Assembly (NCBI GenBank): GCA_034189315.1
Contig: JAXHVC010000224.1
Coordinates: 281 to 64,280, forward strand
Origin: Chloroflexota bacterium
GTDB taxonomy: Bacteria > Chloroflexota > Dehalococcoidia > UBA2247 > JAXHVC01
Reading direction: 5' to 3'
Length of the DNA stretch: 64,000 nucleotides
Of the stretch, positions 1-40,606 are shown in pieces. The position numbers and the translations under genes were made by a program. Below the pieces are notes generated by a model, which saw only the letters and a program-made list of their open reading frames with translations, was not told where the DNA came from and did no database searches. Position 1 is the first letter of the stretch, and each line of letters starts with the position of its first letter.

Positions 1-185
1 ACTCCTCTCCCAAGAAACTGGGGGTTGCTTTTACTAATAATCCGTGTTCTTCACGAGTCCCATGCTCGCAATGGCAGTCGAGGTTTGCTCGATAAACAAT
101 GTGTTTCGGAGCTACGGTAATAATCATTATCTATAAGTTTCTTGACACGCAAAAGTGCACGGTCAAGGTAAAGTCCACAACGAGG

Positions 186-1361
186 CTATAACGGCTTTAT
201 TCTCCTCATTCGCTCACCAGCATCAAGAAGGGTTTCCACCTTCTTGGAAAAGGAAAACCGCATACAATGTTCCCCATATCCCGGTAGCGAATAGAAAACG
301 GAACCAGGAACAACAGCAACACGATACTCTCTGACCATCCATTCAGCAAAACTCCTTGAATCCCATTGAGCCTGAGGAATCTCCATTCGACTGTAATCGG
401 CCAGAATATAGTAGGCCCCTTCCGGTACTGTCATCGTAAATCCTAAGTCCTTAAGGATCTCAACCATAACATCCCTTCTCTGGTGATAGTCTGATAGTAT
501 TCCATCGTAATAGTCCTGAGGAAAACTAAGCGCCATCACAGCCGCTATCTGAAGAGGGGTAGGAGCACAAATAGTGAGGAAATCATGTACAGGCCGAATG
601 GCTCGCATCAATTGTGTGGGGGCAACCATATAACCCAAGCGCCAACCTGTGATTGCATAGGTTTTACTAAATCCCCCTATCGTTATGGTACGCTCCCTTA
701 ATTGTTCAAAACCACCCGGGGATAAATGGTGTCGTCCATCATAGAGAATACGATCATAAATCTCATCCGTTATGAGTACAATATCATGTTGCTGTGCTAG
801 ATTGGCCACGATATCTATTTCTTTGGCATCAAAGACACGACCAGTGGGATTATGTGGAGTGTTAAGTAATAAGGCACAGGTCCGAGGAGTAATACAAGCA
901 CTCAGGCGTTCGAAATCCAACCTATACTCTGGATGTTCCAGGGGAACTGCAACTGGTCTTGCTCCGGCAAGTATAATGGCAGGAATGAAATTCTCATGAC
1001 CAGGCTCAATCAGCAACACATCATCACCTGGATTAGATACGGCCAGCATAGCCACATTAATAGCTTCCGTGACACCACAAGTGACCGTGACATGTTCTGC
1101 CGGATCCACAGTCCAGCCTAGTAACGATGTATATCGTTCTGCTAATTTCTCACGCAGCGGTAGATATCCCCAAGTGAAAGAGTATTGGTTATTACCTTCT
1201 CTAATAGCATTGACAGCAGCCTCTTTCAAAGGCAGTGGCGTATCAAAATCTGGGTATCCCTGGCTTAGATTAATGGCATCATAATCCATAGCCAATCGAG
1301 TCATCTCTCGAATTACAGACTCCCTGAAATACGTAACACGTTGGGCTGTATGCATGGCCAA
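186..1361 (-). CDS. PLP-dependent class I/II aminotransferase (aspartate/methionine/kynurenine aminotransferase-like)
   Basis: 391-aa ORF. N-terminal FRESVIREMTRLA...INLSQGYPDF and a later GFSKTYAITGWRLGY (lysine-containing PLP segment) are typical of fold-type I aminotransferases. Confidence 0.8.
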   Translation of the reverse strand: MAMHTAQRVTYFRESVIREMTRLAMDYDAINLSQGYPDFDTPLPLKEAAVNAIREGNNQYSFTWGYLPLREKLAERYTSLLGWTVDPAEHVTVTCGVTEAINVAMLAVSNPGDDVLLIEPGHENFIPAIILAGARPVAVPLEHPEYRLDFERLSACITPRTCALLLNTPHNPTGRVFDAKEIDIVANLAQQHDIVLITDEIYDRILYDGRHHLSPGGFEQLRERTITIGGFSKTYAITGWRLGYMVAPTQLMRAIRPVHDFLTICAPTPLQIAAVMALSFPQDYYDGILSDYHQRRDVMVEILKDLGFTMTVPEGAYYILADYSRMEIPQAQWDSRSFAEWMVREYRVAVVPGSVFYSLPGYGEHCMRFSFSKKVETLLDAGERMRRIKPL

Positions 1362-5380: not shown

Positions 5381-5693
5381 GTACCTACCTCCTAATATAT
5401 TGATACCCGATCTGTCTTTGTGCAGAGTCTACTCCACTTGAGTAAATACGTTAGTTTACGAAGTCAATAACTATGTAAAAGCCAAATGAATTTAAAGTAA
5501 CAAATATCAGTCAAATTTAATCTTTACCATCTTCACTATAGCCTTGATCTTCCCCATAATAACTAATACTCCATAACAATCAGTCAGTTAGCCCATCAGG
5601 AATGTAGTGTAACCTTCAGTAGTCCGATGAATATCGAAATCCAGGAGACCTAGAGGCTGTATTCCATGTCAACGGACCCTATCGCAATGTTAT

Positions 5694-5806
5694 TGAGAGC
5701 ACGGGACCAGTGAGTAACACGGGTTATTAGTAAAAGAAACATCCCGTTTCTCAGGAGGATCGGAAGCGACGAGGCAATCTCTCCTCTGGAATGAGATTGC
5801 TTCACC
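5694..5806. repeat. Copy 1 of a duplicated ~120-nt element (partner at 8224-8351)
   Basis: About 65 nt at roughly 80% identity to 8224-8288 (gagcacg...gtgagNNacacggNttattagNaaaagaaacNtccNgtttctNaggag), plus a shared gattgcttcacc 37-52 nt downstream. It contains the agaaac/gtttct hairpin. Confidence 0.55.
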
Positions 5807-6654
5807 TTTGGTTCGCAAAGATGTGACAAACTCGGATTGTTCATCACATAATGTAGTCTAATGTGCAGGGGAAGTTCTGACCTTCCTGGGAAGGGCGAAT
5901 GAATACACCCATACTATCTTATGGGTAATTAAACTAGGTTAAGTGATGTTATAGGACACACGGAACTCATATATGTGATAGTTAGTAGATATTAATAACA
6001 ACCATTGACATACAACTAGCTATTATCACCCGATAACGGATTAGCAGAGATTACGATGATTTTTACGAGGAAGTCACGGACCTAATCATTCATTCCATCA
6101 AGAGAAAAGCCTGATACATTGTATTAACATATCAGTGCAGCAGAAAAATCAAGAAAACACGAAGATTAGGGGCTTGAGTACAGAGCTGGTATATGGTATA
6201 TTCAATCTAGTTACTAACCCACACATCCCCAGAATAAAGATTTAGCGGTTTAACTGGTTAGAAAATGGAATGTATTGAGTTCTTCAAATACACCTATACC
6301 TATAGTCAATAAGTAATGTTACTAAACCTGATATCTACTCGTACTTGAGGCACATGAATCCTGCGAGGTTAGAATTGCCATACCCTATGATTAGGAGGAA
6401 GGTGTTTTCAGTTTCTATCCAAAAACATGACATAGCAAGTAGCACCCCTAGGATCATTCTCCTATCAGCACTCGTACTTCTGACCTATACAAGTGGATGT
6501 GTATTATTCTAATAAGCATTAGATAGGGAAGACATATTACTTTATGACTAATCTGCACATTAAAAACCGAATGGCGTAGCTTTCTATATATCCTAAATAG
6601 TTATTGTTAACTGAGCTTGATATTGGTTTTGGGTTGCACTAAGGGGTCAGAATA

Positions 6655-7827
6655 TTGAGAATAGCCCTTATTTCTACTTATGGCGTTCGGTGTGGTATAG
6701 CAACCTACTCATCTCACTTGGTCAAACAGCTAAGCAAGAACCATGAAGTGACTGTATTTGCAGAAGACTATATAGACAACAAGCAACATGGTTTCCAGCC
6801 GGATGTGCAGGTGATCCGATGTTACAATAGGAAATCTCCATCCGATAGGTTGGTACGTTGTCTCCGAAGGAATCACTTCGATGTCATTCACATCCAGCAT
6901 GAGTATGGCATATTTCGCAATATGTATCTACAGCTATTGAATATCACCAATAACAACCTTGGAACGACATTCATGACCTCACATACTGTGAACGCCTTAG
7001 ACACTCAATTCACCCTTAGACGGTGTGCAGACCATATCATCGTACACAACGAGGCGAGTAAGCGACACCTGACTCAGGAGTGCGGATTACGCGGTGATAC
7101 TACACAAGTGATTCCTCATGGAACATTGTTACTCCCATCAATTTCTAAGGAAGTCTCAAGGCTAAGACTTGGGCTTCCTACCAAAGATAGAATCGTTCTC
7201 ACACATTCCTTTATTGAGAGACGAAAGAATCTGGATATAGTGATGAGCGCTGTAGCAGAATTACAGGGAGAGACGCCAACCCACTATGTCCACGCTGGAG
7301 GGCTTCATCCCTATGCAGACATTGAAGAATATGCGTATGCAGAGTCACTAAAAATGCAGCCTAAGGCGCTTGGAATTGAACCTGTAGTTCATATAATAGA
7401 TAGGTTTATACCTGATGATGAGTTAGCATACTACTTGTCAGCAGCGGATATTATTGTGGTCCTGGAGAAAACATCATATCCAGAGCTTCGTGCTTCAGGC
7501 ATCATGCATACTATCGTTCCAGGATCAGTGATAGTGGCGTCCAACATAACGGAGTTCGATGAATTTCCAGATGATACGGTTTATAAAGTAGGAATCAACA
7601 CAGAGGCACTGGCTCATGCAATGCAACAAGTTTTTACCGACCCCAAACTAAAACATATCCTGTCAAACAACCTTCTGCAATATGCCAAAGCTTCATCATG
7701 GGAAAACGTTGCTGAATATCATATAGCTGCCTATCAGAACTCACTAGATCTCAAAGTCAACAAGCACAACGAGAGACAATGTCCTCATCCAAATAGACAC
7801 AACAAGCAGCTGTCCTCAGACAGATGA
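6655..7827 (+). CDS. Glycosyltransferase family 4 (GT-B, group 1)
   Basis: 390-aa ORF. The N-terminus MRIALISTYGVRCGIATYSSHL is typical of GT4 enzymes, with a C-terminal retaining-GT-B-like region. Confidence 0.7.
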   Translation: MRIALISTYGVRCGIATYSSHLVKQLSKNHEVTVFAEDYIDNKQHGFQPDVQVIRCYNRKSPSDRLVRCLRRNHFDVIHIQHEYGIFRNMYLQLLNITNNNLGTTFMTSHTVNALDTQFTLRRCADHIIVHNEASKRHLTQECGLRGDTTQVIPHGTLLLPSISKEVSRLRLGLPTKDRIVLTHSFIERRKNLDIVMSAVAELQGETPTHYVHAGGLHPYADIEEYAYAESLKMQPKALGIEPVVHIIDRFIPDDELAYYLSAADIIVVLEKTSYPELRASGIMHTIVPGSVIVASNITEFDEFPDDTVYKVGINTEALAHAMQQVFTDPKLKHILSNNLLQYAKASSWENVAEYHIAAYQNSLDLKVNKHNERQCPHPNRHNKQLSSDR

Positions 7828-7851
7828 CTATTTCTTCAAACTAATGGGAAT

Positions 7852-7917
7852 GGCGTTCAGCCATGGGTGGTCAGCATTCGGTTTAGACTGAGTGCTGATA
7901 GCCGATGGCTGAACGCC
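7852..7917 (+). terminator. Long hairpin 24 nt downstream of the GT4 stop (13-bp outer stem ggcgttcagccat/atggctgaacgcc)
   Basis: A perfect 13-bp inverted repeat encloses a ~40-nt inner structured region. A terminator role is inferred only from its position after the GT4 stop; the tail after it (ttacttcc) is weakly T-rich. Confidence 0.4.
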
Positions 7918-8223
7918 TTACTTCCTACCTTTCGTACCTAAGTTATAGCATACTCAATTCCAATTATGTAATGATTAGTTTATTTACTAATGGTCTCATA
8001 ATTAAATGGACGCACTCTTTAGCTTTGAAATGAGTCATTTCAAGTATGCGAGATACCCACATAAAGCTAATTTGTTGGTTCAGATTATTATGAGACTATT
8101 AGTACTATATGCTACTGGTATAGTGTTCAAGACAAAGCCCCGAAATTACATCCCCCCGTCAGGAAATTAGTTCACGTTCACCATGCCCCCCAAGTGATCG
8201 TGATTTGAGACAATTCGTTCGTT

Positions 8224-8351
8224 GCGAGCACGAAATCCGTGAGGGACACGGTTTATTAGGAAAAGAAACCTCCAGTTTCTTAGGAGAGATTTCCCTACAA
8301 ATGTATTAAAAGAATGCCAGACTAAGGACTAGTCGGCATGATTGCTTCACC
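8224..8351. repeat. Copy 2 of the duplicated ~120-nt element, spanning the stop codon and 3'UTR of the GH130 fusion gene
   Basis: Homologous to 5694-5806. In minus orientation it forms the hairpin AGAAAC-UGGAG-GUUUCU followed by UUUUCC, a weak intrinsic-terminator-like structure just after the stop at 8322. Confidence 0.55.
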
Positions 8352-11300
8352 GATGATATCCACTCCCGTCTTCATTCTTATTTCTTCTGGAATCAAGTCA
8401 CCCACTTTTGCCGTGGCTGCACAGATAACAGTGTCGGCTGCTCCATAATAGACTATGATCTCGTCCCCCACATCCAATAATTCCTTATCTTGCCGCGCTA
8501 CTGCACCACAAGTAAACACCACATTGGGGATCCAGGACTTGCCATGCTCACCAACTTCATAGGTCGCTAACGGTTCTAATATAGCATTAGGTGAACGATA
8601 GATAATCTTTGCTGGATCATTAAGATCCACCACCATGACCCCCAACCGATAGACATGTGCGAAATCTACACCGTGATAAATCAATAACCACCCATACTTT
8701 GTCTTAAGTGGTTGGGCACCAGCCCCCACCTTCACTCCATCCCAGGTTACACCTGAACGCGGTCCTGTCAATATTTTGTGGCCTTTCCTCGACCAAGGTG
8801 CATCTATGGTTTCAGAGTAGGATATCCATACACTAGGTTCAATGCGATGATACATGACGTATTTCCCATTGAACTTCTCAGGGAAAAGCACAGCATCTTT
8901 ATCAGCATACCCAGGAAAAGGTTGTCCATGCCTCTCCCATCTATCCCAACGATGATTCAGAAAATCCCCTATATCAATTGAAGCAATGGCGATTTGTGCT
9001 GCTATATGACTAAAGGCAGTGTATAGCATGTATACCCGGTTATCGATCACCACAATCCTAGGATCTTCACATCCTTTGCTCTCCTCCTCAACAGCTGGCC
9101 CATACACCGGATAAGGGAGTCGTTCACTTATGTGGATACCATCAGAGCTCTCGGCAAGACCTATCCTGGATATAGAATCCTCCCCATAGGCACGATATAG
9201 GAGATATGTAATCCCCTTTATAATCACTGCTCCACAATTAAGTACATATTTAGACTCCCAGGTATGATCTGATATCGGTTGAAGTATTGGATTCTCTTTC
9301 ACCCTACTAAGCACACCAGCTTCGGGTTGTTCCATAGCTAAAGGCTGTGCAGGTAATACCTTTGTCGTTTCTCTCCCTAGCGGCAATACTATATATGAGA
9401 GATCCTCCGATTCCCGGCCTTGCCCCATAAGCTCCACGATCTTTCCATCCAAGCGATTCTCATCACCACCAATCACCTCAAACAAGCGCAAGAGAAATTC
9501 ACGTGATGCCCAGTCTCTCTCCACATGCACAGATAAAGGCGTTGGGACACCCCTCCCCCCCCTGGCACTGTAACTCGACCAACTCCAACAAGAGCATGGA
9601 ATGAACTTACCTCCCGTTGTAGTCCAGGCAATATGGTAACAATCAGTGGCATGTTTAAGCATGCTTGCCAAATGTTTAAACTTTTCATGATGCACCATAT
9701 CTTGCACCATCATTCTTAGCCGCTCGACAAGAATTCTCTGATTCTTATCCTCAAATATGTTATGAGCAGATAGTGGCTCCCTTCCCCAATGCCCTTCGAT
9801 AGAATTAATCACTTTTCTGCCGAACTCCTTCTTTTCTTCGGCAAATATACGCCACATCTCGCCAAACCGCTCACCTTCGACAATATTCTTACAGACAAGT
9901 GTTAGATAACGCGTCTTAGGAAATTCGCCTCCCACTCCCTTGGGAAGGTTTGTAACCATAATCCGACCACTCAGCATATCTACTTCCGAAACACCTCTCG
10001 ACTCAAGTAACAAAGGAAATCTATCGTAATCTACCACCAAAGGCTTTAGTGAATCTAAAGTAAAATGATCTGGTCGCGCGTTACTCCTAATCCACGCCCA
10101 TATCCTTGCCCGATGCTCCATTTCTTCAGAAAGTCCAGCCAGAGCTAGGATGTCATTCGGAGCATATACCTTCTCAAGTTTTGACAGTGTGATCGGTCCC
10201 AATTTGAGCAGTAGATTAGAAGGTGGATACCGTCTAAGAAGCCAGGAAATAACATCAGGTTGAAGCATATATCCTTGCTCATAAGGCAATCTACTAAAAA
10301 CGGCATCTACAATCGAATCAACTCCATCCTGCATAGTGACATCTCCAGAAAGTAATGCCTCATCAAGATCTACTTCAAGATCCCTCATGAAATGCTTTAC
10401 TTCATAGACGACCTCTCGTGTATCAGCTCCATACGGTACACCCAGCGTACCATGGACAAAATGCTCAAATCCTTCCTTCAGATGCCCCACGATTTCCCGA
10501 TGAACAACATCTACTCGAGCTATCTCTCCATTCGGAGCAGTGATTTCATGCGGCATTATTAGTGCCACACCTGGGACAAACTCCCTACATGTTACATTGG
10601 GAAGCATGGGAAGAAAGGCTTCCTCCTTCTCTGTCCACCTGGTCATGAATTCAGACCGTTGTCTCACAAACTCACTGACCTGATCTTCAATCCACCCCTC
10701 AGCCTGCGATTGCACAATAGGTTTGGCCTCATCATGAGGAATCCTCGATAAACGGCTCTCGAGAAATCGGACCTGGTTTGCGAAACTAGCGAGTCTACCA
10801 TCATAAATTGGCACGAACGCGCTAAGTAAATCCTCTTTGTCGATATCACTAGCAAAGTTAAACGCACAGGCAAAATGATAGACTGTACGAGCCCATGTCT
10901 CAGTATTAAGAGAGAACTTCTCATCATCAGTCTCGGCCAGAGCTTCTAGTGTCTTGCATAGGTCTGGAGGCAAGATCCTTTCACATACGGTATGGTCATA
11001 ACGATTAAAGCCTTTTCTATACCTTGCCATCAGCCATATAGAATTCAACCGACTTTCAATAGGCCCCCGTCTCTCAGTATCCACAATCTCATCAACAGTA
11101 CGAAGTATATGCCCTCTCTCCTGCCACCAGTCACTATGCAATACAATACATTCAAACAAGGTTTTTGCCACTTCCCTTAGAGATACTTCCATCTTCCCGG
11201 GGGACGACTTGTGTAACCTGACACCCATATCAACTTCACATATCTTGACGTCACCAGTGATCGCACAAGTGACCATCCACAGATCCGTACCAAGTCCTCT

Positions 11301-11966
11301 GGTCTCGCTGAACCAGGCACCCGGGCTATTTAGGCAAAGATCCAGACTTGACCTGGACATGGCAAATTCTATTCCAAGAGGATCATGTATCTTCACTCCA
11401 TAGACACCTGCAATTAAAGGGTAAGCTAGATGTCTAGCAGTTGGCACCTCAAAGGAATGCCTATTGAATCTCGATACAGCAAGTCCATAATCATCATTGC
11501 GTATTGGAGATAGAATTCGATGGACCCAATCAGGGCTCATTCCCTTGTTTCCAGAGTTTGAGCTCTTCCTGCTTATCAGGTCAGCCTCAAATATGGCAAT
11601 ATCGGAACGTAGCAAGCTTGCTATCTCCATAATGGCTCGCAGACTCCACCCCTTACCACTCACCTTCTTACTGTTCATCAGGAATGAAATCCGCGATATA
11701 TTTCCTTCACGAGGAAGACCTCGTATCACCTCCAAGGTCGTACTTCCAGCTGCATCTCCAACACATACCACCACACACTTGTTGTCTGGATAGTACTTCC
11801 TTAGTCCATCCTCCACAGTAAGCAGTAAACCTGCAATAGTATCCATCTCTTTCCAAAATGGGATACCCACTACAATGTCTGCAGTTCCAATTGCTTCTAT
11901 CTCTTTTAATGCATTTCGCAAGGATTCGCGATATTCCTCCTCAACAGGGGAACTCTTACTTGTCAT
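8322..11966 (-). CDS. Multidomain protein: N-terminal nucleotide-sugar glycosyltransferase-like (GT-A) region, central unknown region, C-terminal GH130 (beta-mannoside phosphorylase/DUF377) domain
   Basis: The C-terminal ~330 aa carry GH130 hallmarks (GWLLIYHGVD, VVFTCGAV, IIVYYGAADTVICAA). The N-terminus (DIVVGIPFWKEMDTIA...CVGDAAGSTT) resembles GpgS/MGS-type GT-A synthases. The start is trimmed to the Met at 11966, which has a GGGGGTGA Shine-Dalgarno; the six-frame ORF extends to 12065. Confidence 0.7.
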   Translation of the reverse strand: MTSKSSPVEEEYRESLRNALKEIEAIGTADIVVGIPFWKEMDTIAGLLLTVEDGLRKYYPDNKCVVVCVGDAAGSTTLEVIRGLPREGNISRISFLMNSKKVSGKGWSLRAIMEIASLLRSDIAIFEADLISRKSSNSGNKGMSPDWVHRILSPIRNDDYGLAVSRFNRHSFEVPTARHLAYPLIAGVYGVKIHDPLGIEFAMSRSSLDLCLNSPGAWFSETRGLGTDLWMVTCAITGDVKICEVDMGVRLHKSSPGKMEVSLREVAKTLFECIVLHSDWWQERGHILRTVDEIVDTERRGPIESRLNSIWLMARYRKGFNRYDHTVCERILPPDLCKTLEALAETDDEKFSLNTETWARTVYHFACAFNFASDIDKEDLLSAFVPIYDGRLASFANQVRFLESRLSRIPHDEAKPIVQSQAEGWIEDQVSEFVRQRSEFMTRWTEKEEAFLPMLPNVTCREFVPGVALIMPHEITAPNGEIARVDVVHREIVGHLKEGFEHFVHGTLGVPYGADTREVVYEVKHFMRDLEVDLDEALLSGDVTMQDGVDSIVDAVFSRLPYEQGYMLQPDVISWLLRRYPPSNLLLKLGPITLSKLEKVYAPNDILALAGLSEEMEHRARIWAWIRSNARPDHFTLDSLKPLVVDYDRFPLLLESRGVSEVDMLSGRIMVTNLPKGVGGEFPKTRYLTLVCKNIVEGERFGEMWRIFAEEKKEFGRKVINSIEGHWGREPLSAHNIFEDKNQRILVERLRMMVQDMVHHEKFKHLASMLKHATDCYHIAWTTTGGKFIPCSCWSWSSYSARGGRGVPTPLSVHVERDWASREFLLRLFEVIGGDENRLDGKIVELMGQGRESEDLSYIVLPLGRETTKVLPAQPLAMEQPEAGVLSRVKENPILQPISDHTWESKYVLNCGAVIIKGITYLLYRAYGEDSISRIGLAESSDGIHISERLPYPVYGPAVEEESKGCEDPRIVVIDNRVYMLYTAFSHIAAQIAIASIDIGDFLNHRWDRWERHGQPFPGYADKDAVLFPEKFNGKYVMYHRIEPSVWISYSETIDAPWSRKGHKILTGPRSGVTWDGVKVGAGAQPLKTKYGWLLIYHGVDFAHVYRLGVMVVDLNDPAKIIYRSPNAILEPLATYEVGEHGKSWIPNVVFTCGAVARQDKELLDVGDEIIVYYGAADTVICAATAKVGDLIPEEIRMKTGVDIIGEAIMPTSP

Positions 11967-12190
11967 CCATATCACCCCCAATGTACATAGTAGACTTCTT
12001 TGCTGTATTATCAGGGTTGAGTCACGCCAATAAAAAGGGGGGCAAGTTAAGAAACAAGCCCCCACACGCCTATATATCTAAGTTTATACTATAAGAATAT
12101 GCGAAAATAGACTTAAGAAAACGCTTAGCTATGAGACCCACCACTGGGAGTCACATTACTGATATATTTAAAACAAACGATAGAATAGAA

Positions 12191-22615: not shown

Positions 22616-22636
22616 AAGGGCCTTTTTAAAATAAAA

Positions 22637-22666
22637 AGAGCCAACCCTAGGGTTGGCTCTTTTCTT
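22637..22666. terminator. Intrinsic terminator hairpin, bidirectional (A-run, stem, T-run)
   Basis: aaaaagAGAGCCAACCCtaGGGTTGGCTCTtttctt lies directly after the crotonase stop. Confidence 0.65.
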
Positions 22667-22906
22667 ATATCAAGCAGGTAATATAGGTAAGCGCTCAGGT
22701 TACTAAGGGAAGAAGCTTTGTTTCTCTTTGTAAACAACAACAACAACCGGGCGGTGTCGCCCGACCTGCGAAAAGCACAAAAAGCCCCCCATTGGTAAAT
22801 ACAAGATAGAAAAAAACCCGCTTAATCTCAACCCACAGTATATCTTAGAGATTATTCTCTCGTATCACTCAGTGAAAAATATGAGCCTATAGTTTGTGCG
22901 ATTTAC

Positions 22907-25631: not shown

Positions 25632-26927
25632 TTATAGATTCAACCTTCCTTGTAGCGACCATGGTCCTGTTCGATCAATTCTGATCCTTAGAATTTTCCC
25701 TAGACATTCATCTGGGGAAGAAAAGAACACAGGCTTATCGGATCGGCTTCTCCCATGCCATTTCCCCCCCTTAATTCCTTCTACCAGAACCTCTATTATG
25801 CTTCCATTTAGGAGATCGTTTAGTTCTTTAGCAATACCCGCTTGAATATCTTCCAACTCCTGCGTCCGTCGTTTCTTTTCATCAGGAGTAATGTCATCTT
25901 CCAACAAACTAGAGGCACTTGTGCCAGGTCTGGGTGAATAGGCTGCAATATGCACCATATCGAACCGGACCTCTTCTAGCAGCTCTCGCGTCCGTTCGAA
26001 CTGAATAATGCTCTCGCCAGGAAAACCAACAATTACATCCGTACTAAGAGCCACCCCAGGAATAACATCCCGGATCTCCTGTACGAGCCTACGATACTCC
26101 CTTACAGTGTAACCCCTGCGCATTCTATGAAGGATATCATCATCACCAGACTGACAAGGTAAATTGATGTGCTCACAGACCTTGTCAAGACGATTGATTG
26201 CCGTGATCAGTTTGTGACTCATATCCTTTGGATGGTTGGTAAGAAACCGTATTCGAGCGATACCCTCTATACCATTCAATTCACTCAGTAATCCTGCCAG
26301 GTCTGTACCAGATTCCAGATCATGCCCATAGGAATCAACGTTCTGCCCCAATAAAATGATCTCCATCGTCCCTTTCTGGACGAGATCATTAACCTCATAC
26401 AATATCTCACTCATTGGTCGGCTGATCTCGCTTCCTCTCCGATATGGAACAACGCAGTAGGAACAGAAGTTGTTGCAGCCTTGGATTATAGGTACGTAGG
26501 CACTCACCTGAGGGGATGATATGATACGAGAACCATCCGATGAAGGGAGGCATTGATCACATCCCCAATCATAGAGAGTCTGCCAATCCTGAGGTCGGAA
26601 GAAGAGATCCACATAAGGAAACCGTCGTTCTAAATCATCTACATCGGATCCAACGAGACAGCCTGTAACGAGTATTCTCGTACTGGGCCTCTTTTTCTTA
26701 AGCCCTCGCAGATAACCGATCCTATTTATGGCTTTATTCTCTGCACTTAGCCGTACAACACATGAATTTACAATGATTATGTCAGCTTCATCAATCCGTA
26801 ACGAAGGTTTGCACCCAGCTCCTTCAAAGTAACTGGCGATATAATTGGAATCTGCCTTATTCATCTGACAACCAATTGTCCAGATATGATAATATATCAC
26901 AGGATAGCCTTCACCCCTATAAAACAA
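25632..26927 (-). CDS. miaB: tRNA-i6A37 methylthiotransferase
   Basis: 431-aa ORF with the MTTase N-domain (HIWTIGCQMNKAD...), a radical SAM core (GCNNFCSYCVVP) and a C-terminal TRAM domain. Confidence 0.88.
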   Translation of the reverse strand: MFYRGEGYPVIYYHIWTIGCQMNKADSNYIASYFEGAGCKPSLRIDEADIIIVNSCVVRLSAENKAINRIGYLRGLKKKRPSTRILVTGCLVGSDVDDLERRFPYVDLFFRPQDWQTLYDWGCDQCLPSSDGSRIISSPQVSAYVPIIQGCNNFCSYCVVPYRRGSEISRPMSEILYEVNDLVQKGTMEIILLGQNVDSYGHDLESGTDLAGLLSELNGIEGIARIRFLTNHPKDMSHKLITAINRLDKVCEHINLPCQSGDDDILHRMRRGYTVREYRRLVQEIRDVIPGVALSTDVIVGFPGESIIQFERTRELLEEVRFDMVHIAAYSPRPGTSASSLLEDDITPDEKKRRTQELEDIQAGIAKELNDLLNGSIIEVLVEGIKGGKWHGRSRSDKPVFFSSPDECLGKILRIRIDRTGPWSLQGRLNL

Positions 26928-27133
26928 ATTGATTATTACACCGTAACTCCAGAACTCATTGTTTGTCAGGCAAACCCCGCCTGTCGTTGTGAGCGGAGCG
27001 AAGCAATCTCGCGTATTTCGTCACTTCGCCCTTCTGAGATTCCTTTGTCACTGGCGTTCCTCGCAACAATTTAAACAAGTTTGTTTTTACACAGCATCAT
27101 GCGAACGGAGCTAAGGGTATAATCGTATAAAAC

Positions 27134-27163
27134 AAAAAAGCCCCTATCGGTAGGGGCATTTTA
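27134..27163. terminator. Intrinsic terminator downstream of tRNA-Ser, bidirectional
   Basis: aacaaaaaaGCCCCTAtcggTAGGGGCatttt; in minus orientation the hairpin is followed by UUUUUUGUUUU. Confidence 0.65.
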
Positions 27164-27193
27164 GCATTATTATGAAACTAATAACGACCAAAG

Positions 27194-27283
27194 CGGAGGG
27201 AGTGGGATTCGAACCCACGACCCCGGATCAACGGGGTAACCGCTTAGCAGGCGGCCGCACTAGACCAACTATGCGATCCCTCC
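27194..27283 (-). tRNA. tRNA-Ser (anticodon GCU), class II with a long variable arm
   Basis: Reverse complement reads GGAGGGA-tc-GCAT...; anticodon stem-loop GCCGC-CUGCUAA-GCGGU. Long variable arm, GGTTCGAATCC T-loop, and a 7-bp acceptor stem pairing with TCCCTCC. CCA is not encoded. Confidence 0.85.
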
Positions 27284-31610: not shown

Positions 31611-31698
31611 ATTACTAATCGTCTCATAATAGAGTGCTCCTGCTGCGTCGCAGTACAGATGGCTGCTTGATCTGGACTTTTATGAGACGATTAGTAAT
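31611..31698. repeat. Perfect 19-bp inverted repeat (attactaatcgtctcataa / ttatgagacgattagtaat) with a 50-nt spacer that holds an inner ctgcgtcgcag palindrome
   Basis: Read directly. It lies in the divergent tig/dnaE intergenic region. Confidence 0.7.
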
Positions 31699-36166: not shown

Positions 36167-37816
36167 ATGGCAGGTGAACAGAAGCTTACCTCCGACACTA
36201 CAAAAGACCTATACGGAAGCTACTCTGAATACTGGCGCAGAAACAAATCAGCCCTTGAGCCATTGGAATTAGCTAATGCATTGAAGGCCTTGCGAAAAGT
36301 CGTGGGGTACGTTGGAGCCAACTGTAAGACGGTGGAATGGGCTGGTATGTCCGAACCAGGGGAAGGCAAGATTCTGATCGACGTCAGTCCTTCCGAAGGC
36401 AAGGTTCCTATTCCAGGGGACAGGATGGATGTCATGGTGGGACAAGCCATCCACGAGGCTCTACATTGCCGTGAATGGAGCGATTGGATTTGGTTAGATG
36501 TCGAGAGTAAGAAGAAAGAACTTTTTCCCAGATACAAGAGTTATCTAAAACTATTAGTAGACGCAGGGGAAGATGTTTATGTTGACCACATAGCTAAGGA
36601 TAATGTACTGGGGAACTATGTCACTGTCACCAGAGCATGGTACAAACCCAAAGGGTCCTTAGATAACTCCTCCTATCCAAATACAGATGGATTGATTCGC
36701 CTATGGAGAAGAATCGCTCTATACAAAGAAGCACCGGAAGAGTATCTTCCTGAATATGAAGAGCCATTGAAAATCCTGATCGATGCAGGGAACCAACTCA
36801 TCGAAGGCGGTCAAGGTATCAGCTCCGTAGCCGAACGTGCAAGTTGTAGGAGTGAGGTATACGTTAGCACATGGGATAAGATCAGCCCATTTCTAACATT
36901 ATGGGATCGGCAGGAAACCGAAAGAATTATGGCCACTCGCAAGGCGAAGAGAGCCGAGCGCTCATTAGTGTACGAAGGTTACACCGAAGATAGTCTATCA
37001 CCCCAGCTTGCACAAGAGGTGGCAGAGATTCTAGCTGCCACTGGGGAAGATATGACCCCTTTGCTGGAAAGCGAGTTGACCAAACCGGAGGACAAAGCCC
37101 TAAGAACCATATTCAAAGATGCAACCATACCATATACACCAAATCTAGACTATACTCTAGTAGCACGGCTGCGGCGTATTTTCCAGGCCCAATGGGAAAG
37201 GACAGTACGCACCGATCGAGGACTAATCAGCGGTAGAGTTGATGGAAGAAGGCTCTACCGAGTAAGTACCACTGGAAGGGTGTTCCGCAATAAAGCCCAC
37301 CCCTTGGTGAACGTTTGGAGTATAACAGTTCTTCTTGACGCATCCATATCAATGGGGATGGCAGGAACAGACTGGCTACATGCGCAGAATACCTGCGCCG
37401 CACTTTGGAAGGCTCTTCAAGGTTATAGAAACAAACTCGATATATTGGCCTATCACGAAGACCACGATGTGTGCCGTGTATCCAAGCTATTCCACCATAG
37501 GCAGTTTTTTACAGTGACCCCTTGCGGTAGAACACCATCAGGACAGGCAGTAATGATTGCCGCAATGAGAATGTCCGAGGCAAAAAGGAAGCTATTGATT
37601 CATATAACCGATGGTGAGTGTAACTGTGGGAGTAGTGTACAGGAAGCATTAAATTACTGCCAAAGGAACTCTATTGAACTTGTGACACTAGGATTCGGCC
37701 TCGACAAGGAACTCGTCAAGGAACAATATGGAGAAAGCAGTCAATTGGTTGACTCAATAAAACAAGTACCTGAAGCACTAGAAATCGTTCTAAAGAAAAA
37801 GCTGTTGAGGGAGTGA
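36167..37816 (+). CDS. vWA-domain protein with an N-terminal HExxH (zincin-like) region, paralog 1
   Basis: C-terminal vWA with a MIDAS motif (LLDASISMG...ITDGECN). N-region has AIHEALH and a downstream AGEDVYVD. The same motifs are conserved in the 38906-40606 paralog. Confidence 0.7.
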   Translation: MAGEQKLTSDTTKDLYGSYSEYWRRNKSALEPLELANALKALRKVVGYVGANCKTVEWAGMSEPGEGKILIDVSPSEGKVPIPGDRMDVMVGQAIHEALHCREWSDWIWLDVESKKKELFPRYKSYLKLLVDAGEDVYVDHIAKDNVLGNYVTVTRAWYKPKGSLDNSSYPNTDGLIRLWRRIALYKEAPEEYLPEYEEPLKILIDAGNQLIEGGQGISSVAERASCRSEVYVSTWDKISPFLTLWDRQETERIMATRKAKRAERSLVYEGYTEDSLSPQLAQEVAEILAATGEDMTPLLESELTKPEDKALRTIFKDATIPYTPNLDYTLVARLRRIFQAQWERTVRTDRGLISGRVDGRRLYRVSTTGRVFRNKAHPLVNVWSITVLLDASISMGMAGTDWLHAQNTCAALWKALQGYRNKLDILAYHEDHDVCRVSKLFHHRQFFTVTPCGRTPSGQAVMIAAMRMSEAKRKLLIHITDGECNCGSSVQEALNYCQRNSIELVTLGFGLDKELVKEQYGESSQLVDSIKQVPEALEIVLKKKLLRE

Positions 37817-38673: not shown

Positions 38674-38905
38674 TCTTGTTCCTACGTTCAATCATCATAT
38701 AGGCCTGCCAGAATAGTCATCTGCCAGGGAGAGGGGGATGGTCACACTGTAAGATCTAACGCTCGGTCCCTGGCAGTTGTTGTTTTTTCAAATCTCTTCT
38801 GTACCGAATACAATCATATGAGTACTGTTATCATTGTTGTGCTCATTAGATAAAGCCAACTTCTCGACCGTTTCCCCCTACGCATTCTACAGGAAAAAAG
38901 GAGCC

Positions 38906-40606
38906 ATGAATTATTCAGAATACTGGAGAGTCAACAAGTCATGCGTTGACCACACAGAACTAGCCAATGCCCTAAGAAGTCTTCGTAAAGTCGTAGGTGA
39001 GGTTGGTGTAGATGCCGATGCTGTATGGTCAGGGGTTCCTATTGACGATAACCCAAGAATCGAATTGCCATTGCTTCTAGCAATGGGGGACTACCCTATA
39101 CCACCAGAAAGGATGGATGTTCTAACGGGAACTGCTATTCATGAAGCACTACATATTAGAGAGAATACACAAAGGGCAGTTGGCTACCTTTCTCAGCTGT
39201 TCCCACGGATGAAGGATAAAACTCCTCTAATGAGGCTGGCACAAGCAGGGGAAGATGTACATGTGAATGGTGTGGCTCTCCAGACAGGACTACTCGGGTG
39301 TTATGTACAAAAGTCAAGACAATGGTGGAGAGATAATCTTAGCTGGGACTTCACAGCAGGACGTCCTAATCTAGAAGGATTACTAGGGATATGGACAGAC
39401 ATTGTATTGGATGTTGTATTCTCGATCATTCCCGCAAATGAATTGCCAGGAATCAAGGACATATTTGCAGAGAGAGAACCAGGAGACCTGCAGTCTACGT
39501 TAGACATTCTCTGTTTATATAACTCAACTGCTCTATTCACTATCTATGGTATCCTCTTACGCATGCCACAAAGTTACGAAGAACCCTTGGAGCACCTTTT
39601 GCTCAACACACCTCAAATTATAGATTCGGATGCAGAAATACGGGCCATATTCTATATGGAGTTCTGGAACAGATGGGAAAAGACCTTCAATGATTGGCAA
39701 TTGGCCATAGAACAGGCAGGACTATCCGAATCCAGCAGCATGTTATCCTCAAGTTCACTTATGGATGATGAGCAAGTACCTCCCGAGATAACAGCCGCGG
39801 TTGCAGCGGCACTCACGGGAGAATCCAAAACCATCACCAGACAGATCGAAGCAACACTGAAAGCGTTAGGAGGTGAACATCAGCGATACAGGCTATTTCC
39901 AACCCTATTCGAGGATGCCACTATGGCATGCAAGGCTGTGCCTCATCAGAGGTTGGTTCGGCGATTAAGCGAGGTGTTTCATCTGCAACAAGAACAGGCA
40001 GCTAGGATCAATCGAGGTCTTCGCAGCGGCAAGTTGGATAAAAGAAGGATGTATAGGGTTCATACGAACGGCCTTATATTTAAGAAGAAAGAGTACTTCC
40101 CGGAGAACAACCGATGGGATATTACTTTGCTTATCGATGCTTCTAGTTCAGTGATATGGCATTGGCAGTTGATCGAAAGCGTTTATGTGGCGATGGCAGA
40201 AGCACTGAAAAGAAACAATAGCAGGTTGGAGATATTGGCATATAAGGAAGCTGCTGGCAACTGTCTAGTGAGTCGTCTCTTCTACGGTAACAGTCTCTTC
40301 ACTACAACAACCGGTGGCAGTACACCCTCCGGCGAAGCTATTATGGCAGCAGCATTGTCCATGCCTCGCAGTCAGAGGCGATTCGTTGTTCATGTGACTG
40401 ATGGTCTTTGGAATTCTGGTATTGATGTATGGTATGCAATAGAGCACTGTAAGAGAGAAGGTATTGATTTAGTTACACTTGGTTGTGGCGATGCCATTAG
40501 AGCTTTGGAATTGCAGTATGGAAAGAGCTTCGAAGTTATCGAATACATTGAGCAACTCCCCAAAGCTATGGAAGATCTATTCCGTAAGAAAATGTTGGGT
40601 CGATAG
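38906..40606 (+). CDS. vWA-domain protein with an N-terminal HExxH (zincin-like) region, paralog 2
   Basis: Aligns with paralog 1 (YSEYWRVNKS...ELANALRSLRKVVG; TAIHEALH; AGEDVHVN; RRMYRV; LLIDASSSV...VTDGLWN). The start is set at the Met aligning with paralog 1; the six-frame ORF begins at 38834. Confidence 0.68.
   Translation: MNYSEYWRVNKSCVDHTELANALRSLRKVVGEVGVDADAVWSGVPIDDNPRIELPLLLAMGDYPIPPERMDVLTGTAIHEALHIRENTQRAVGYLSQLFPRMKDKTPLMRLAQAGEDVHVNGVALQTGLLGCYVQKSRQWWRDNLSWDFTAGRPNLEGLLGIWTDIVLDVVFSIIPANELPGIKDIFAEREPGDLQSTLDILCLYNSTALFTIYGILLRMPQSYEEPLEHLLLNTPQIIDSDAEIRAIFYMEFWNRWEKTFNDWQLAIEQAGLSESSSMLSSSSLMDDEQVPPEITAAVAAALTGESKTITRQIEATLKALGGEHQRYRLFPTLFEDATMACKAVPHQRLVRRLSEVFHLQQEQAARINRGLRSGKLDKRRMYRVHTNGLIFKKKEYFPENNRWDITLLIDASSSVIWHWQLIESVYVAMAEALKRNNSRLEILAYKEAAGNCLVSRLFYGNSLFTTTTGGSTPSGEAIMAAALSMPRSQRRFVVHVTDGLWNSGIDVWYAIEHCKREGIDLVTLGCGDAIRALELQYGKSFEVIEYIEQLPKAMEDLFRKKMLGR

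Follow-up and report, generated by a model that had tools for sequence, protein, structure and literature searches.

The 64-kb stretch of Chloroflexota DNA analysed here, in the following referred to as the window, contains two similar segments, one in a gene-free gap and the other at the end of a gene coding for a GH130 protein, which raises the question of whether they are relics of a lost gene or copies of a repeated element. The sequence-only reading had favoured a former GH130 paralogue, whose 3' end and terminator would persist in decayed form, and had named the copying of a small structured element as alternative. We find that the element is a repeat and not the remnant of a lost gene, with at least three copies and an unusual two-hairpin module residing in its loop. 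REP-type repeats are common and poorly understood, and the duplicated element probably (with an estimated likelihood of about 60%) represents a small family of such non-coding, hairpin-forming dispersed repeats.

A conserved core is present in three copies

A comparison of the window with itself by blastn detected extended similarity between positions 5693-5757 and 8222-8286, which align without gaps over 65 nt at 81.5% identity (E=1.6e-9). The described duplication of ~65 nt at ~80% identity is thus borne out and beyond chance, and a degenerate 35-nt pattern of this core matches the window three times compared to 0.00 matches expected from 100 shuffles. Both copies described before (C1 and C2) are real, but they are accompanied by a third core copy on the minus strand (C3, running from 72 to 5), with pairwise identities between the three of 80-82%. 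C1 and C2 also share the noted AGAAAC-N5-GTTTCT hairpin, located at 5735-5751 and 8264-8280 and followed by TTTT on the minus strand, and a 12-mer (gattgcttcacc) at 5795-5806 and 8340-8351, which starts 38 nt past the core in C1 and 54 nt in C2. This 12-mer had been assigned to the last residues of the GH130 protein. The ORF has its stop at 8322-8324 and ends in ...IIGEAIMPTSP*. Within the last codons, the 12-mer thus encodes the residues G-E-A-I (ggt gaa gca atc on the minus strand), nine to six residues before the end.

The core fills the loop of a palindromic repeat unit

Instead of being free-standing, the core occupies the loop of a repeat unit with the family format (C/T)GTC-ATTGCGAG-[loop]-GAAGCAAT-CYN. 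Both arms, ATTGCGAG and GAAGCAAT, are 8 nt long with A,T as first bases and are complementary at five positions only (ATTGC/GCAAT), with G.A, A.A and G.G juxtaposed at the inner three positions. C1 constitutes a complete inverted dimer of the repeat on the plus strand (5688-5824), with arm motifs placed by local alignment to the family consensus. Its left unit carries a TGTT tag and the stem ATTGAGAG (5692-5699), a loop consisting of the core (part 5700-5761) plus GGAAGCGAC, and the return stem GAGGCAAT (5771-5778) with the tail CTC; a spacer (5782-5792) separates it from the inverted right unit GAG-ATTGCTTC (5796-5803) ... TCGCAAAG (5813-5820). In its RNA fold, GCAATCTC and GAGATTGC form a hairpin. 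Within the C1 core (5693-5757; 80.3% identical to C3 by blastn, 74.9 bits by nhmmer), the pair table defines a hairpin termed hp2 (5705-5712/5718-5725, loop AGTAA), the conserved linker ATTAGTAAA (5726-5734) and a hairpin termed hp3 (5735-5740/5746-5751, loop ATCCC). The entire element is sited between divergent genes, 850 nt 5' of a GT4 gene.

C2 (8221-8289, plus strand), as delineated by blastn, nhmmer and the pair table, comprises the left stem GTTGCGAG (8221-8228) and the core, with hp2 at 8234-8241/8247-8254 (loop AGGGA), the linker at 8255-8263 and hp3 at 8264-8269/8275-8280 (loop CTCCA). It is positioned between the convergent GT4 (plus strand) and GH130 (minus strand) genes, 400 nt 3' of the former and 34 nt past the stop of the latter. 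This copy had been viewed as stop codon and 3' untranslated region of the GH130 gene; the core itself spans 34-100 nt past the stop, outside the ORF. A hairpin with a T-run that belongs to the GH130 gene itself (8313-8338, minus strand) is located between stop and core. The 12-mer at the end of the ORF includes the standard arm motif of the family, GATTGCTTC (reverse complement GAAGCAATC), which is frequent in the family, and the coding tail is kept in a relative at 86%, with synonymous changes. The repeat at the 3' end of the GH130 gene is old enough for its arm to supply codons of the protein tail, and annotators should be warned that this tail and several small 'ORFs' in the region are repeat-derived.

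C3 (5-72, minus strand; left stem CATTGCGAG) was identified by blastn and scores 76.6 bits in nhmmer. Its 3' part extends off the start of the window, and it is located ~115 nt downstream of an aminotransferase gene with the same orientation (186-1355, minus strand). Directly upstream of C3, blastn and alignment define a module of ~55-60 nt (73-126, minus strand), which at 78% identity is common to the sequence upstream (26930-26981) of a core-less element termed E4, with 64-126 matching 26994-26930 in blastn at E=1.5e-9. E4 (26982-27069, plus strand), which matches the short-unit profile of the family in nhmmer (E=9e-6), is a dimer of the repeat with the layout TGTC-GTTGTGAG-CGGAGC-GAAGCAAT-CTC, a spacer and GAG-ATTCCTTT...CTCGCAAC, located between miaB and tRNA-Ser, both on the minus strand. 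Within the same genome, E4 and C3 form a pair that follows a shared upstream module, with E4 lacking the core and C3 containing it.

A fourth, diverged core copy with the same arms, hp2 and linker was found on an unrelated metagenome contig (L013), where hp3 is replaced by a longer and still complementary stem (GAGCGCAGC/GCTGCGTTC). Like C1 and E4, L013 is a dimer. The tags of C1 (TGTT), C2 (GTTC or TTCG) and C3 (TGCC) deviate from TGTC/CGTC and are thus called degenerate, E4 and L013 carry TGTC, and the tails of the window copies read CTC. All three window copies are contained in the first 8.3 kb of the 64 kb, a clustering for which the scarcity of intergenic sequence in the rest of the window accounts only in part.

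Structure and constraint of the module

The module consists of two hairpins joined by the conserved linker (A)TTAGNAAA(A)G and extends over 61-69 nt in this Chloroflexota genome, with slot lengths of 61-90 nt in the four core copies. Variable columns are distributed unevenly, with 6 of 28 in the stems, 1 of 9 in the linker, 7 of 10 in the loops, 3 of 4 in the junction and 5 of 9 in the tail. Stems plus linker are less variable than the rest (Fisher p=0.0007), which, in light of the varying loops, suggests that the module is under some constraint. Among the changes in the stems, two keep G.U pairs and three break pairs, and with a total of only four known core copies the structural support is thin. 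In every copy, L013 among them, the left boundary of the core falls exactly where the stem ends.

Distribution of the core and of the wider repeat family

The claim that the segment is rearranged or accessory applies to its intergenic spacers, which differ by indels from those of a syntenic relative with ~82% nucleotide identity (L030), but not to the genes, which are syntenic. The core was not detected by nhmmer --max in the syntenic 16 kb of L030 and it was not found in the outgroup L166; at the orthologous C2 site it is missing in both genomes. Its absence at both sites in relative and outgroup indicates that its presence is lineage-specific. At C2, the difference to L030 amounts to a net ~58 nt at the same spot, where the ambiguous alignment is compatible with either insertion or deletion. 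C1 is contained in a ~530-nt stretch (5560-6091, as defined by blastn blocks and alignment) that has no counterpart in L030, with 14 nt in its place, and is thus part of a larger indel and not a clean 140-nt insertion. Neither a target-site duplication nor a clean empty site was definable by comparison with L030.

In searches beyond these relatives, an 18-base pattern of the core retrieved five matches from 185,579 representative genomes, none of them a true copy (all at 15-19 bits by nhmmer; the two that were inspected, L002 and L004, are chance matches), which characterizes the module as rare. The 18-base pattern matched JGI metagenomes 17 times, with one real copy (L013), and a 17-base pattern matched IMG/VR five times, in all cases by chance. 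A protein profile built from the core translated in reverse frame, employed as proxy for a DNA search, retrieved nothing from 5.8 billion proteins, and blastn searches of phages with C1 and of plasmids with L013 yielded nothing or fragments of the arms only. Literature searches with DNA and pseudo-peptide strings returned unrelated papers only. At the gathering threshold, Rfam gave no match overlapping the elements in the whole window and none in eight related loci, and at E<=10 none in 5400-8500 (covering C1 and C2, not C3) or in 26850-27200. No transposase domain was detected in 39 larger ORFs of the window (29 scanned against Pfam and 10 against NCBIfam).

The arms are far more widespread than the core. 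In IMG/VR, at least 120 stretches match CATTGCGAG-N(0-30)-GACGAAGCAATC, and the fetched loci contain 347 units and 106 dimers among the matches listed, with both strands counted. Among these matches, dimers typically pair a 12-nt slot with a 6-nt slot, and slot lengths peak at 6 and 12 nt within a range of 4-48 nt. A TGTC/CGTC tag is found in 247 of the 272 units (91%) and the tails read CTC in 108 (40%), CCA in 78 (29%) and CCC in 39 of them, again among the matches listed. Inserts in the loop slot of other family members are mostly hairpin-forming. Family copies were found in Novosphingobium, Methylosinus, Methylocystis, Aulosira and Legionella plasmids.

As a separate observation, the window also harbours a MITE-like family (7985-8104 and 31611-31698) with 19-nt terminal inverted repeats, whose sequence is unrelated to the core; the copy at 7985-8104 is missing in L030 and the family looks active. 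In the Logan assemblies, the contig with the aminotransferase gene ends ~87 nt past the gene, short of C3, and contigs end inside C2 (~8257), in the MITE (~8013) and in the upstream module (~99). Such ends are suggestive of repeats, but they carry little weight since C1 did not break its contig.

Competing explanations

The copying of a small structured element to several places, previously offered as the alternative, is supported by the three copies in the window and the one on an unrelated contig, by the absence of the core from the orthologous sites of the close relative, and by its embedding in a known type of palindromic repeat. The same copies speak against a lost GH130 paralogue as origin of C1, since C3 follows an unrelated gene and the fourth copy is located on an unrelated contig. 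A tblastn search of the gaps with all 99 window ORFs of >=100 aa detected no GH130 or glycosyltransferase remnants (the best non-trivial match, with E=0.015, is on the wrong strand), which leaves the decayed gene unsupported, and the 65 nt of similarity are outside of the GH130 ORF. The 12-mer common to C1 and the end of the GH130 ORF would be expected from such an origin, but it includes the standard arm motif of a family of repeats that counts hundreds of members. We regard a lost paralogue as extremely improbable. It is also very unlikely that the elements chiefly serve to terminate transcription or to insulate convergent or tandem genes from each other. While C2 is located between convergent genes and C3 after the end of a gene, C1 resides between divergent ones. 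The T-run following hp3 on the minus strand and the flagging of C2 hp2 (plus strand) and of a C1 site (minus strand) in a terminator scan would fit this role, but hp3 is A+T-rich with only six pairs, four of them A-T, where an intrinsic terminator has a G+C-rich stem followed directly by a T-run, the GH130 gene has a better hairpin with a T-run of its own, and predicted sites are not enriched in the window (5, two of them in cores, vs 2.8 +/- 1.9 in shuffles).

Two further explanations concern the core itself, and we consider both to be unlikely. It could be a separate tiny mobile element, such as a MITE or an insertion-sequence remnant, with the loops of resident REP units as its specific insertion site; some insertion sequences are known to target REPs. 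The E4/C3 pair, sharing upstream module and arms and differing by the core, the net ~58-nt difference to L030 at C2 and the presence of another active-looking MITE in the genome are in line with such an insertion. By eye, however, the core shows no terminal inverted repeats and no target duplication, a parent insertion sequence is not known, and the coincidence of the left boundary with the stem end is equally expected of an inherited loop variant. Alternatively, the module could be a functional structured RNA of the forward strand, acting as cis-regulatory element, small RNA or protein-binding motif and merely closed by the REP arms. This would account for the conservation of the stems and the single-stranded 9-nt linker next to variable loops, for the two one-sided stem changes, which pair on the forward strand only (G.U/A-U at 13:33 and C-G/U.G at 16:30), for the common orientation of C1-C3 like a neighbouring gene, and for the swapped hp3 of L013, whose element folds far better than shuffled sequences (z=-5.6). 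Yet the reverse strand of L013 scores similarly (z=-5.4), the window copies are unremarkable (z of -2.1 to +0.3), and wobble pairs in the arms of the wider family are not biased towards one strand (68 G.T vs 78 A.C). The copies have no consistent placement with respect to genes (3' of the aminotransferase, 850 nt 5' and 400 nt 3' of GT4), the module is missing in close relatives with the same genes and Rfam provides no match even at E<=10 (5400-8500). In a related scenario, which we likewise regard as unlikely, the 61-69-nt module with its linker UUAGNAAAAG could be a self-contained functional motif of RNA or single-stranded DNA, with protein binding or catalysis as conceivable roles, that propagates by riding in REP loops. 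If true, a Chloroflexota MAG and an unrelated organism would both have conserved it, and REP loops would act as carriers of structured cargo.

Several known element types were considered and rejected. A diversity-generating retroelement does not agree with the location of the core outside the ORF, the lack of a reverse transcriptase among the scanned ORFs and mismatches that, by eye, are not confined to adenines. In integron attC sites the arms follow the order ...AAC...GTT... instead of the GTTG...CAAC found here. Hammerhead and other small ribozymes were considered in view of GA-rich junctions, but their core motifs do not fit and Rfam gave no match, and the topology of ykkC-type riboswitches differs in a hand alignment.

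Proposed mechanism and relation to known repeats

In the favoured interpretation as REP-type repeat, each unit comprises an unpaired YGTC tag and a stem starting from ATTGC, whose return strand GCAAT follows after the loop and is itself followed by a tail of 3 nt. Units usually occur as inverted pairs that may fold into one long hairpin, and the loop of one unit here holds the 61-69-nt module instead of the usual 6-12 nt. Copies may have spread in the way REPs do or, alternatively, loop content could have moved between resident units by gene conversion, for which the arms, being conserved, would provide the path. If the host is affected, this would be by RNA hairpins in 3' untranslated regions that act on transcript ends or stability. 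To our knowledge, neither a spreading mechanism nor a mobilising enzyme is known for CGTC REPs and no dedicated transposase has been described. The locus reveals no new biological system. It displays a conserved module of two hairpins, present or absent among close relatives in one lineage, and offers a handle on how repeats change and spread, be it by loop conversion, nested insertion or transposition.

MITEs are small, non-coding elements with inverted ends, a target-site duplication and a related autonomous element. The family described here resembles them in its small size, its non-coding nature, its inverted arms and its presence/absence differences between related genomes, but neither target-site duplication nor related autonomous element was found for it. 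REPINs consist of two inverted REP units with a short spacer, have many intergenic copies and the potential to form a long hairpin, and they are characterized by GTAG-type heads and by their link to a RAYT gene that has the repeats on its flanks. Bertels and Rainey are said to have described their mobilisation by RAYT transposases in 2011. Our family shares the inverted pair of units with a short spacer, the possible single long hairpin and the many intergenic copies, whereas its tag is YGTC and not GTAG, and no Y1 transposase or RAYT was seen among the scanned ORFs of the 64-kb window.

The closest resemblance is to the CGTC-tagged REPs, which contain an unpaired CGTC (or TGTC/CCTC) tag, an A/T-first stem of 8-9 bp, a loop of 4-5 nt and a 3-nt unpaired tail near CCA, form mostly inverted dimers and often heterodimers, and are located after ORFs or between convergent ORFs, whose ends they can overlap, with no linked transposase (PMC3733652). 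Novosphingobium is listed among the genera with CGTC repeats and Chloroflexota are not (Di Nocera, De Gregorio and Rocco 2013, BMC Genomics 14:522; PMC3733652), and the strings CGTCATTGC and ATTGCGAG appear in neither the text nor five supplements of that paper. The present family differs in its host, a Chloroflexota MAG, in its stem of five Watson-Crick pairs (ATTGC/GCAAT) followed by purine-purine juxtapositions and in its loop of 6-12 nt in general and 61-90 nt in the core copies, and thus falls outside the strict definition with its 8-9 bp stem and 4-5 nt loop. Conversely, it has in common with these REPs the A,T-first stem, the prevalence of inverted dimers with unequal partners, the intergenic location past ORFs or in between convergent ones, where ORF ends are occasionally overlapped, the lack of a transposase among the scanned ORFs of the 64-kb window and the presence in Novosphingobium. 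The YGTC tag is shared by most units of the wider family but degenerate in C1-C3, and the 3-nt tail reads CCA in 29% of the units listed but CTC in the window copies. The CGTC/TGTC-tagged class would extend to uncultured Chloroflexota and many viral contigs, and the loop of its units constitutes a slot in which hairpins of widely differing size are tolerated.

Copies of the core inside and outside the window

The sequence-only reading had proposed a duplicated element of about 120 nt with one copy at the 3' end of the GH130 gene, preferably explained by a lost paralogue. The homology of its two segments is borne out by MAFFT and blastn, which give an ungapped 65-nt alignment of positions 5693-5757 (C1) and 8222-8286 (C2) with 81.5% identity; E is 1.6e-9 when the whole 64-kb window is compared with itself. 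This core consists of two hairpins, hp2 and hp3, separated by a 9-nt linker. The AGAAAC-N5-GTTTCT hairpin is equally confirmed in both copies, as is the 12-mer gattgcttcacc at 5795-5806 and 8340-8351. A 35-nt degenerate core pattern, with 0 matches in 100 shuffled windows, locates a third copy (C3) on the minus strand from 72 to 5, which is truncated by the window edge and follows an aminotransferase gene unrelated to glycans. Pairwise identities among the three copies are 80-82%, and an unfiltered nhmmer profile matches no other positions of the window than these. An 18-base pattern taken from the core where conservation is highest has no real match in 185,579 representative genomes and a single one in JGI metagenome contigs, which is a diverged fourth copy on contig L013. 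With no real match of the core pattern in IMG/VR and nothing found in a protein-space proxy search, the core is thus rare and lineage-restricted.

The repeat unit surrounding the core

C1 is an imperfect inverted dimer with the layout ATTGAGAG-[core]-GGAAGCGAC-GAGGCAAT-CTC, an 11-nt spacer and GAG-ATTGCTTC-ACC...TCGCAAAG. This layout recurs in the copy on L013, the arms being near-perfect there (TGTC-ATTGCGAG-[core variant]-GAC-GAAGCAAT-CTT ... GGATTGCTGCGCTCTG-CTCGCAAT-GACA), and a core-less dimer of the same repeat (E4, 26982-27069) is located between miaB and tRNA-Ser (TGTC-GTTGTGAG-CGGAGC-GAAGCAAT-CTC ... CTCGCAAC). A scan of IMG/VR with CATTGCGAG-N(0-30)-GACGAAGCAATC matches at least 120 stretches, and the fetched loci contain, among the matches listed and with both strands counted, 347 units and 106 dimers, the canonical form being CGTCATTGCGAG-GAGCGAAGCGAC-GAAGCAATCCAG-[20-30 nt]-CTGGATTGCTTC-GCTTCG-CTCGCAATGACG. 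Among these listed matches, the tag is TGTC or CGTC in 91% of units, unit tails are CTC, CCA or CCC, and the slot between the two stems is variable, mostly 6 or 12 nt and up to 48 nt, the longer inserts being hairpins. It is exactly this slot that is filled by the core, which begins directly after ...GCGAG in 4/4 copies. The same dimer is found in plasmids of Novosphingobium, Methylosinus, Methylocystis, Aulosira and Legionella, in case of Novosphingobium at 40 or more places in one replicon. Rfam contains no family for the core, E4 or typical members of the repeat family. Since the 12-mer includes the family arm motif GATTGCTTC, its recurrence is a family signature and provides no evidence for a duplication of 120 nt.

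Some viral contigs in IMG/VR (e.g. L036, L047, L142 and L160) contain half-units of the family in tandem arrays, such as three copies of the 24-nt GTCATTGCGAGGCATCTCCCCTCT, which adjoin, on the upstream side, the Shine-Dalgarno sequence and start of a small conserved gene (MSKVKES...).

The 3' end of the GH130 gene and comparison with relatives

The GH130 ORF (8322-12065 on the minus strand, publicly annotated as 1,214 aa) does include the 12-mer, as had been described, but since the protein ends in ...IIGEAIMPTSP*, the 12-mer encodes G-E-A-I slightly upstream of the C-terminus and not the last residues. The 65-nt core is located entirely outside of the ORF, 34-100 nt past the stop. The tail of the gene is repeat-like in all three genomes compared (GAAGCAATC in the window, GAAGCAATA in the syntenic relative L030 and CCCGCAATGTCA...CGAAGC in the outgroup L166), which indicates that, to judge from these sequences, the repeat arm is old and now coding, and that only the core would be recent.

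Protein searches assign the window to a Chloroflexota MAG. L030, a contig of a related organism identified in the same way, shares 83% (GT4) and 86% (GH130) protein identity with the window and about 80-83% in coding DNA. The core is absent from it (nhmmer --max): at the C2 site, the distance between the conserved anchors GATTTGAGA ... ATTA-N-GGCATACTAGG is smaller by a net ~58 nt in L030, and the ~530-nt stretch 5560-6091 containing C1 is replaced by 14 nt. These differences may reflect insertion in the window genome or deletion in L030 alike. In L166, whose GH130 is 56% identical, a 155-nt spacer is devoid of the core. In the window itself, E4 and C3 have in common an upstream module of about 55-60 nt at 78% identity (TGATTATTAC..CCGTARCTCC..CATTGTTT..GCAAACC..; 26930-26981 on the plus strand before E4, 73-126 on the minus strand before C3) and the left arm, the core being present in C3 only. 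The two are a pair of one composite element, which lacks the core in E4 and includes it in C3.

The upstream module contains a small hairpin in each copy, with differing sequences (TCGAG/CTCGA and CAGGC/GCCTG). The edges of 5560-6091 display, by eye, an imperfect direct repeat (AATCAGTCAGTTAGCCCATCAGGA near 5577, AATCATTCATTCCATCAAGA near 6084), and besides C1 the stretch holds about 260 nt of non-coding DNA without explanation. Among Logan short-read contigs of the same sample, L006 ends in C2 (~8257), L031 in a MITE-like element (~8013) and L032 in the upstream module (~99); the contig spanning C1 is unbroken.

Other repeats and genes

The MITE-like family, separate from the core, comprises 31611-31698, whose 19-nt terminal inverted repeats (ATTACTAATCGTCTCATAA / TTATGAGACGATTAGTAAT) are perfect and enclose ~50 nt, and 7985-8104, with 42-nt arms of 76% complementarity, which is missing from L030. 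A 31-bp hairpin (GGCGTTCAGCCATGGGTGGTCAGCATTCGG...CTGAGTGCTGATAGCCGATGGCTGAACGCC; window 7852-7917, L030 5938-6003) begins 25 nt past the stop of GT4. In L030, its arms are unchanged and the loop alone differs, although the flanking spacer is unalignable; it has only weak miRNA-like matches in Rfam. A 58-nt imperfect palindrome (22621-22678, 80% self-complementary) directly follows an enoyl-CoA hydratase gene. GT4 (6655-7827, plus strand) has two close relatives (100% and 83% identical) and other matches at 44-50% identity, the few named ones being archaeal (Archaeoglobaceae, Halobacteriota; 46-47%). Pfam matches only the last ~280 residues of the GH130 protein, whose N-terminal part of ~900 aa lacks a match yet is conserved across Dehalococcoidia-like metagenome proteins. 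The paralogous ORFs 36167-37816 (549 aa) and 38834-40606 (590 aa), without Pfam or NCBIfam match, have a DNA stretch of 61% identity in common (36221-36466 versus 38912-39154), and an AAA_5 ATPase gene is located between them.

Constraint on the core and alternative explanations

Counted over C1-C3 throughout, with L013 added for the first 45 columns, variable columns make up 6/28 in stems and 1/9 in the linker, versus 7/10 in hairpin loops, 3/4 in the junction and 5/9 in the tail (stems and linker versus rest, Fisher p=0.0007). In hp2, two one-sided changes (G.U/A-U, C-G/U.G) retain pairing on the forward strand only, and three other changes break pairs. In place of hp3, L013 carries a longer complementary stem, although this replacement sequence is also able to pair with the arm opposite. 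L013 folds with strong energies on either strand (z=-5.6 and -5.4), and the energies of the window copies are ordinary. Together, these data place the module under some constraint, which may reflect either RNA function or recognition during spread. Arm mismatches in the wider family are without strand bias (68 G.T versus 78 A.C), which suits a DNA-level palindrome as well as RNA. That the core is a functional RNA appears unlikely to us, and a role as terminator considerably more so.

The best-supported reading, with a probability of about 0.6, is that of a dispersed repeat of the REP type, with a lineage-specific two-hairpin module in its loop slot. We infer that the module would travel either together with its unit or from one unit to another by conversion via the conserved arms, and that its effect, if any, would be exerted as RNA hairpins in untranslated regions. 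A separate mini-element that targets REPs is as unlikely as a functional RNA. The 39 larger window ORFs scanned include no transposase, and the rest of the window is core chromosome (trp operon, dnaE, tig, clpP, ribosomal protein operon, fusA, uvrB). The decayed GH130 paralogue is the least probable explanation: no GH130 or glycosyltransferase remnant is detected in the four gaps (tblastn with each of the 99 window ORFs of 100 aa or more), and the contexts of the third and fourth core copies are unrelated, so that this reading can be dropped.

Relationship to CGTC-tagged REPs

The format of the repeat family is that described for CGTC-tagged REPs (Di Nocera, De Gregorio and Rocco, 2013; PMC3733652), of which four families were published and which were found mostly in alpha-proteobacteria, Novosphingobium included. 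These contain an unpaired CGTC/TGTC tag, a stem starting with A and T and a short tail near CCA, frequently form inverted heterodimers, reside after ORFs or between convergent ORFs, whose ends they sometimes overlap, and lack a linked transposase (PMC3733652). Conversely, the stem of the present family contains only five Watson-Crick pairs followed by three purine-purine juxtapositions, and its loop exceeds 4-5 nt. In light of these departures, and as its exact strings are absent from the text and supplements, figures apart, of PMC3733652, the family resembles REPs in format and behaviour and represents a new variant, rather than a proven member of one of the four CGTC families. The core-bearing repeat does not constitute a new system; it helps annotation and provides a lead on the variation of CGTC-type REPs.
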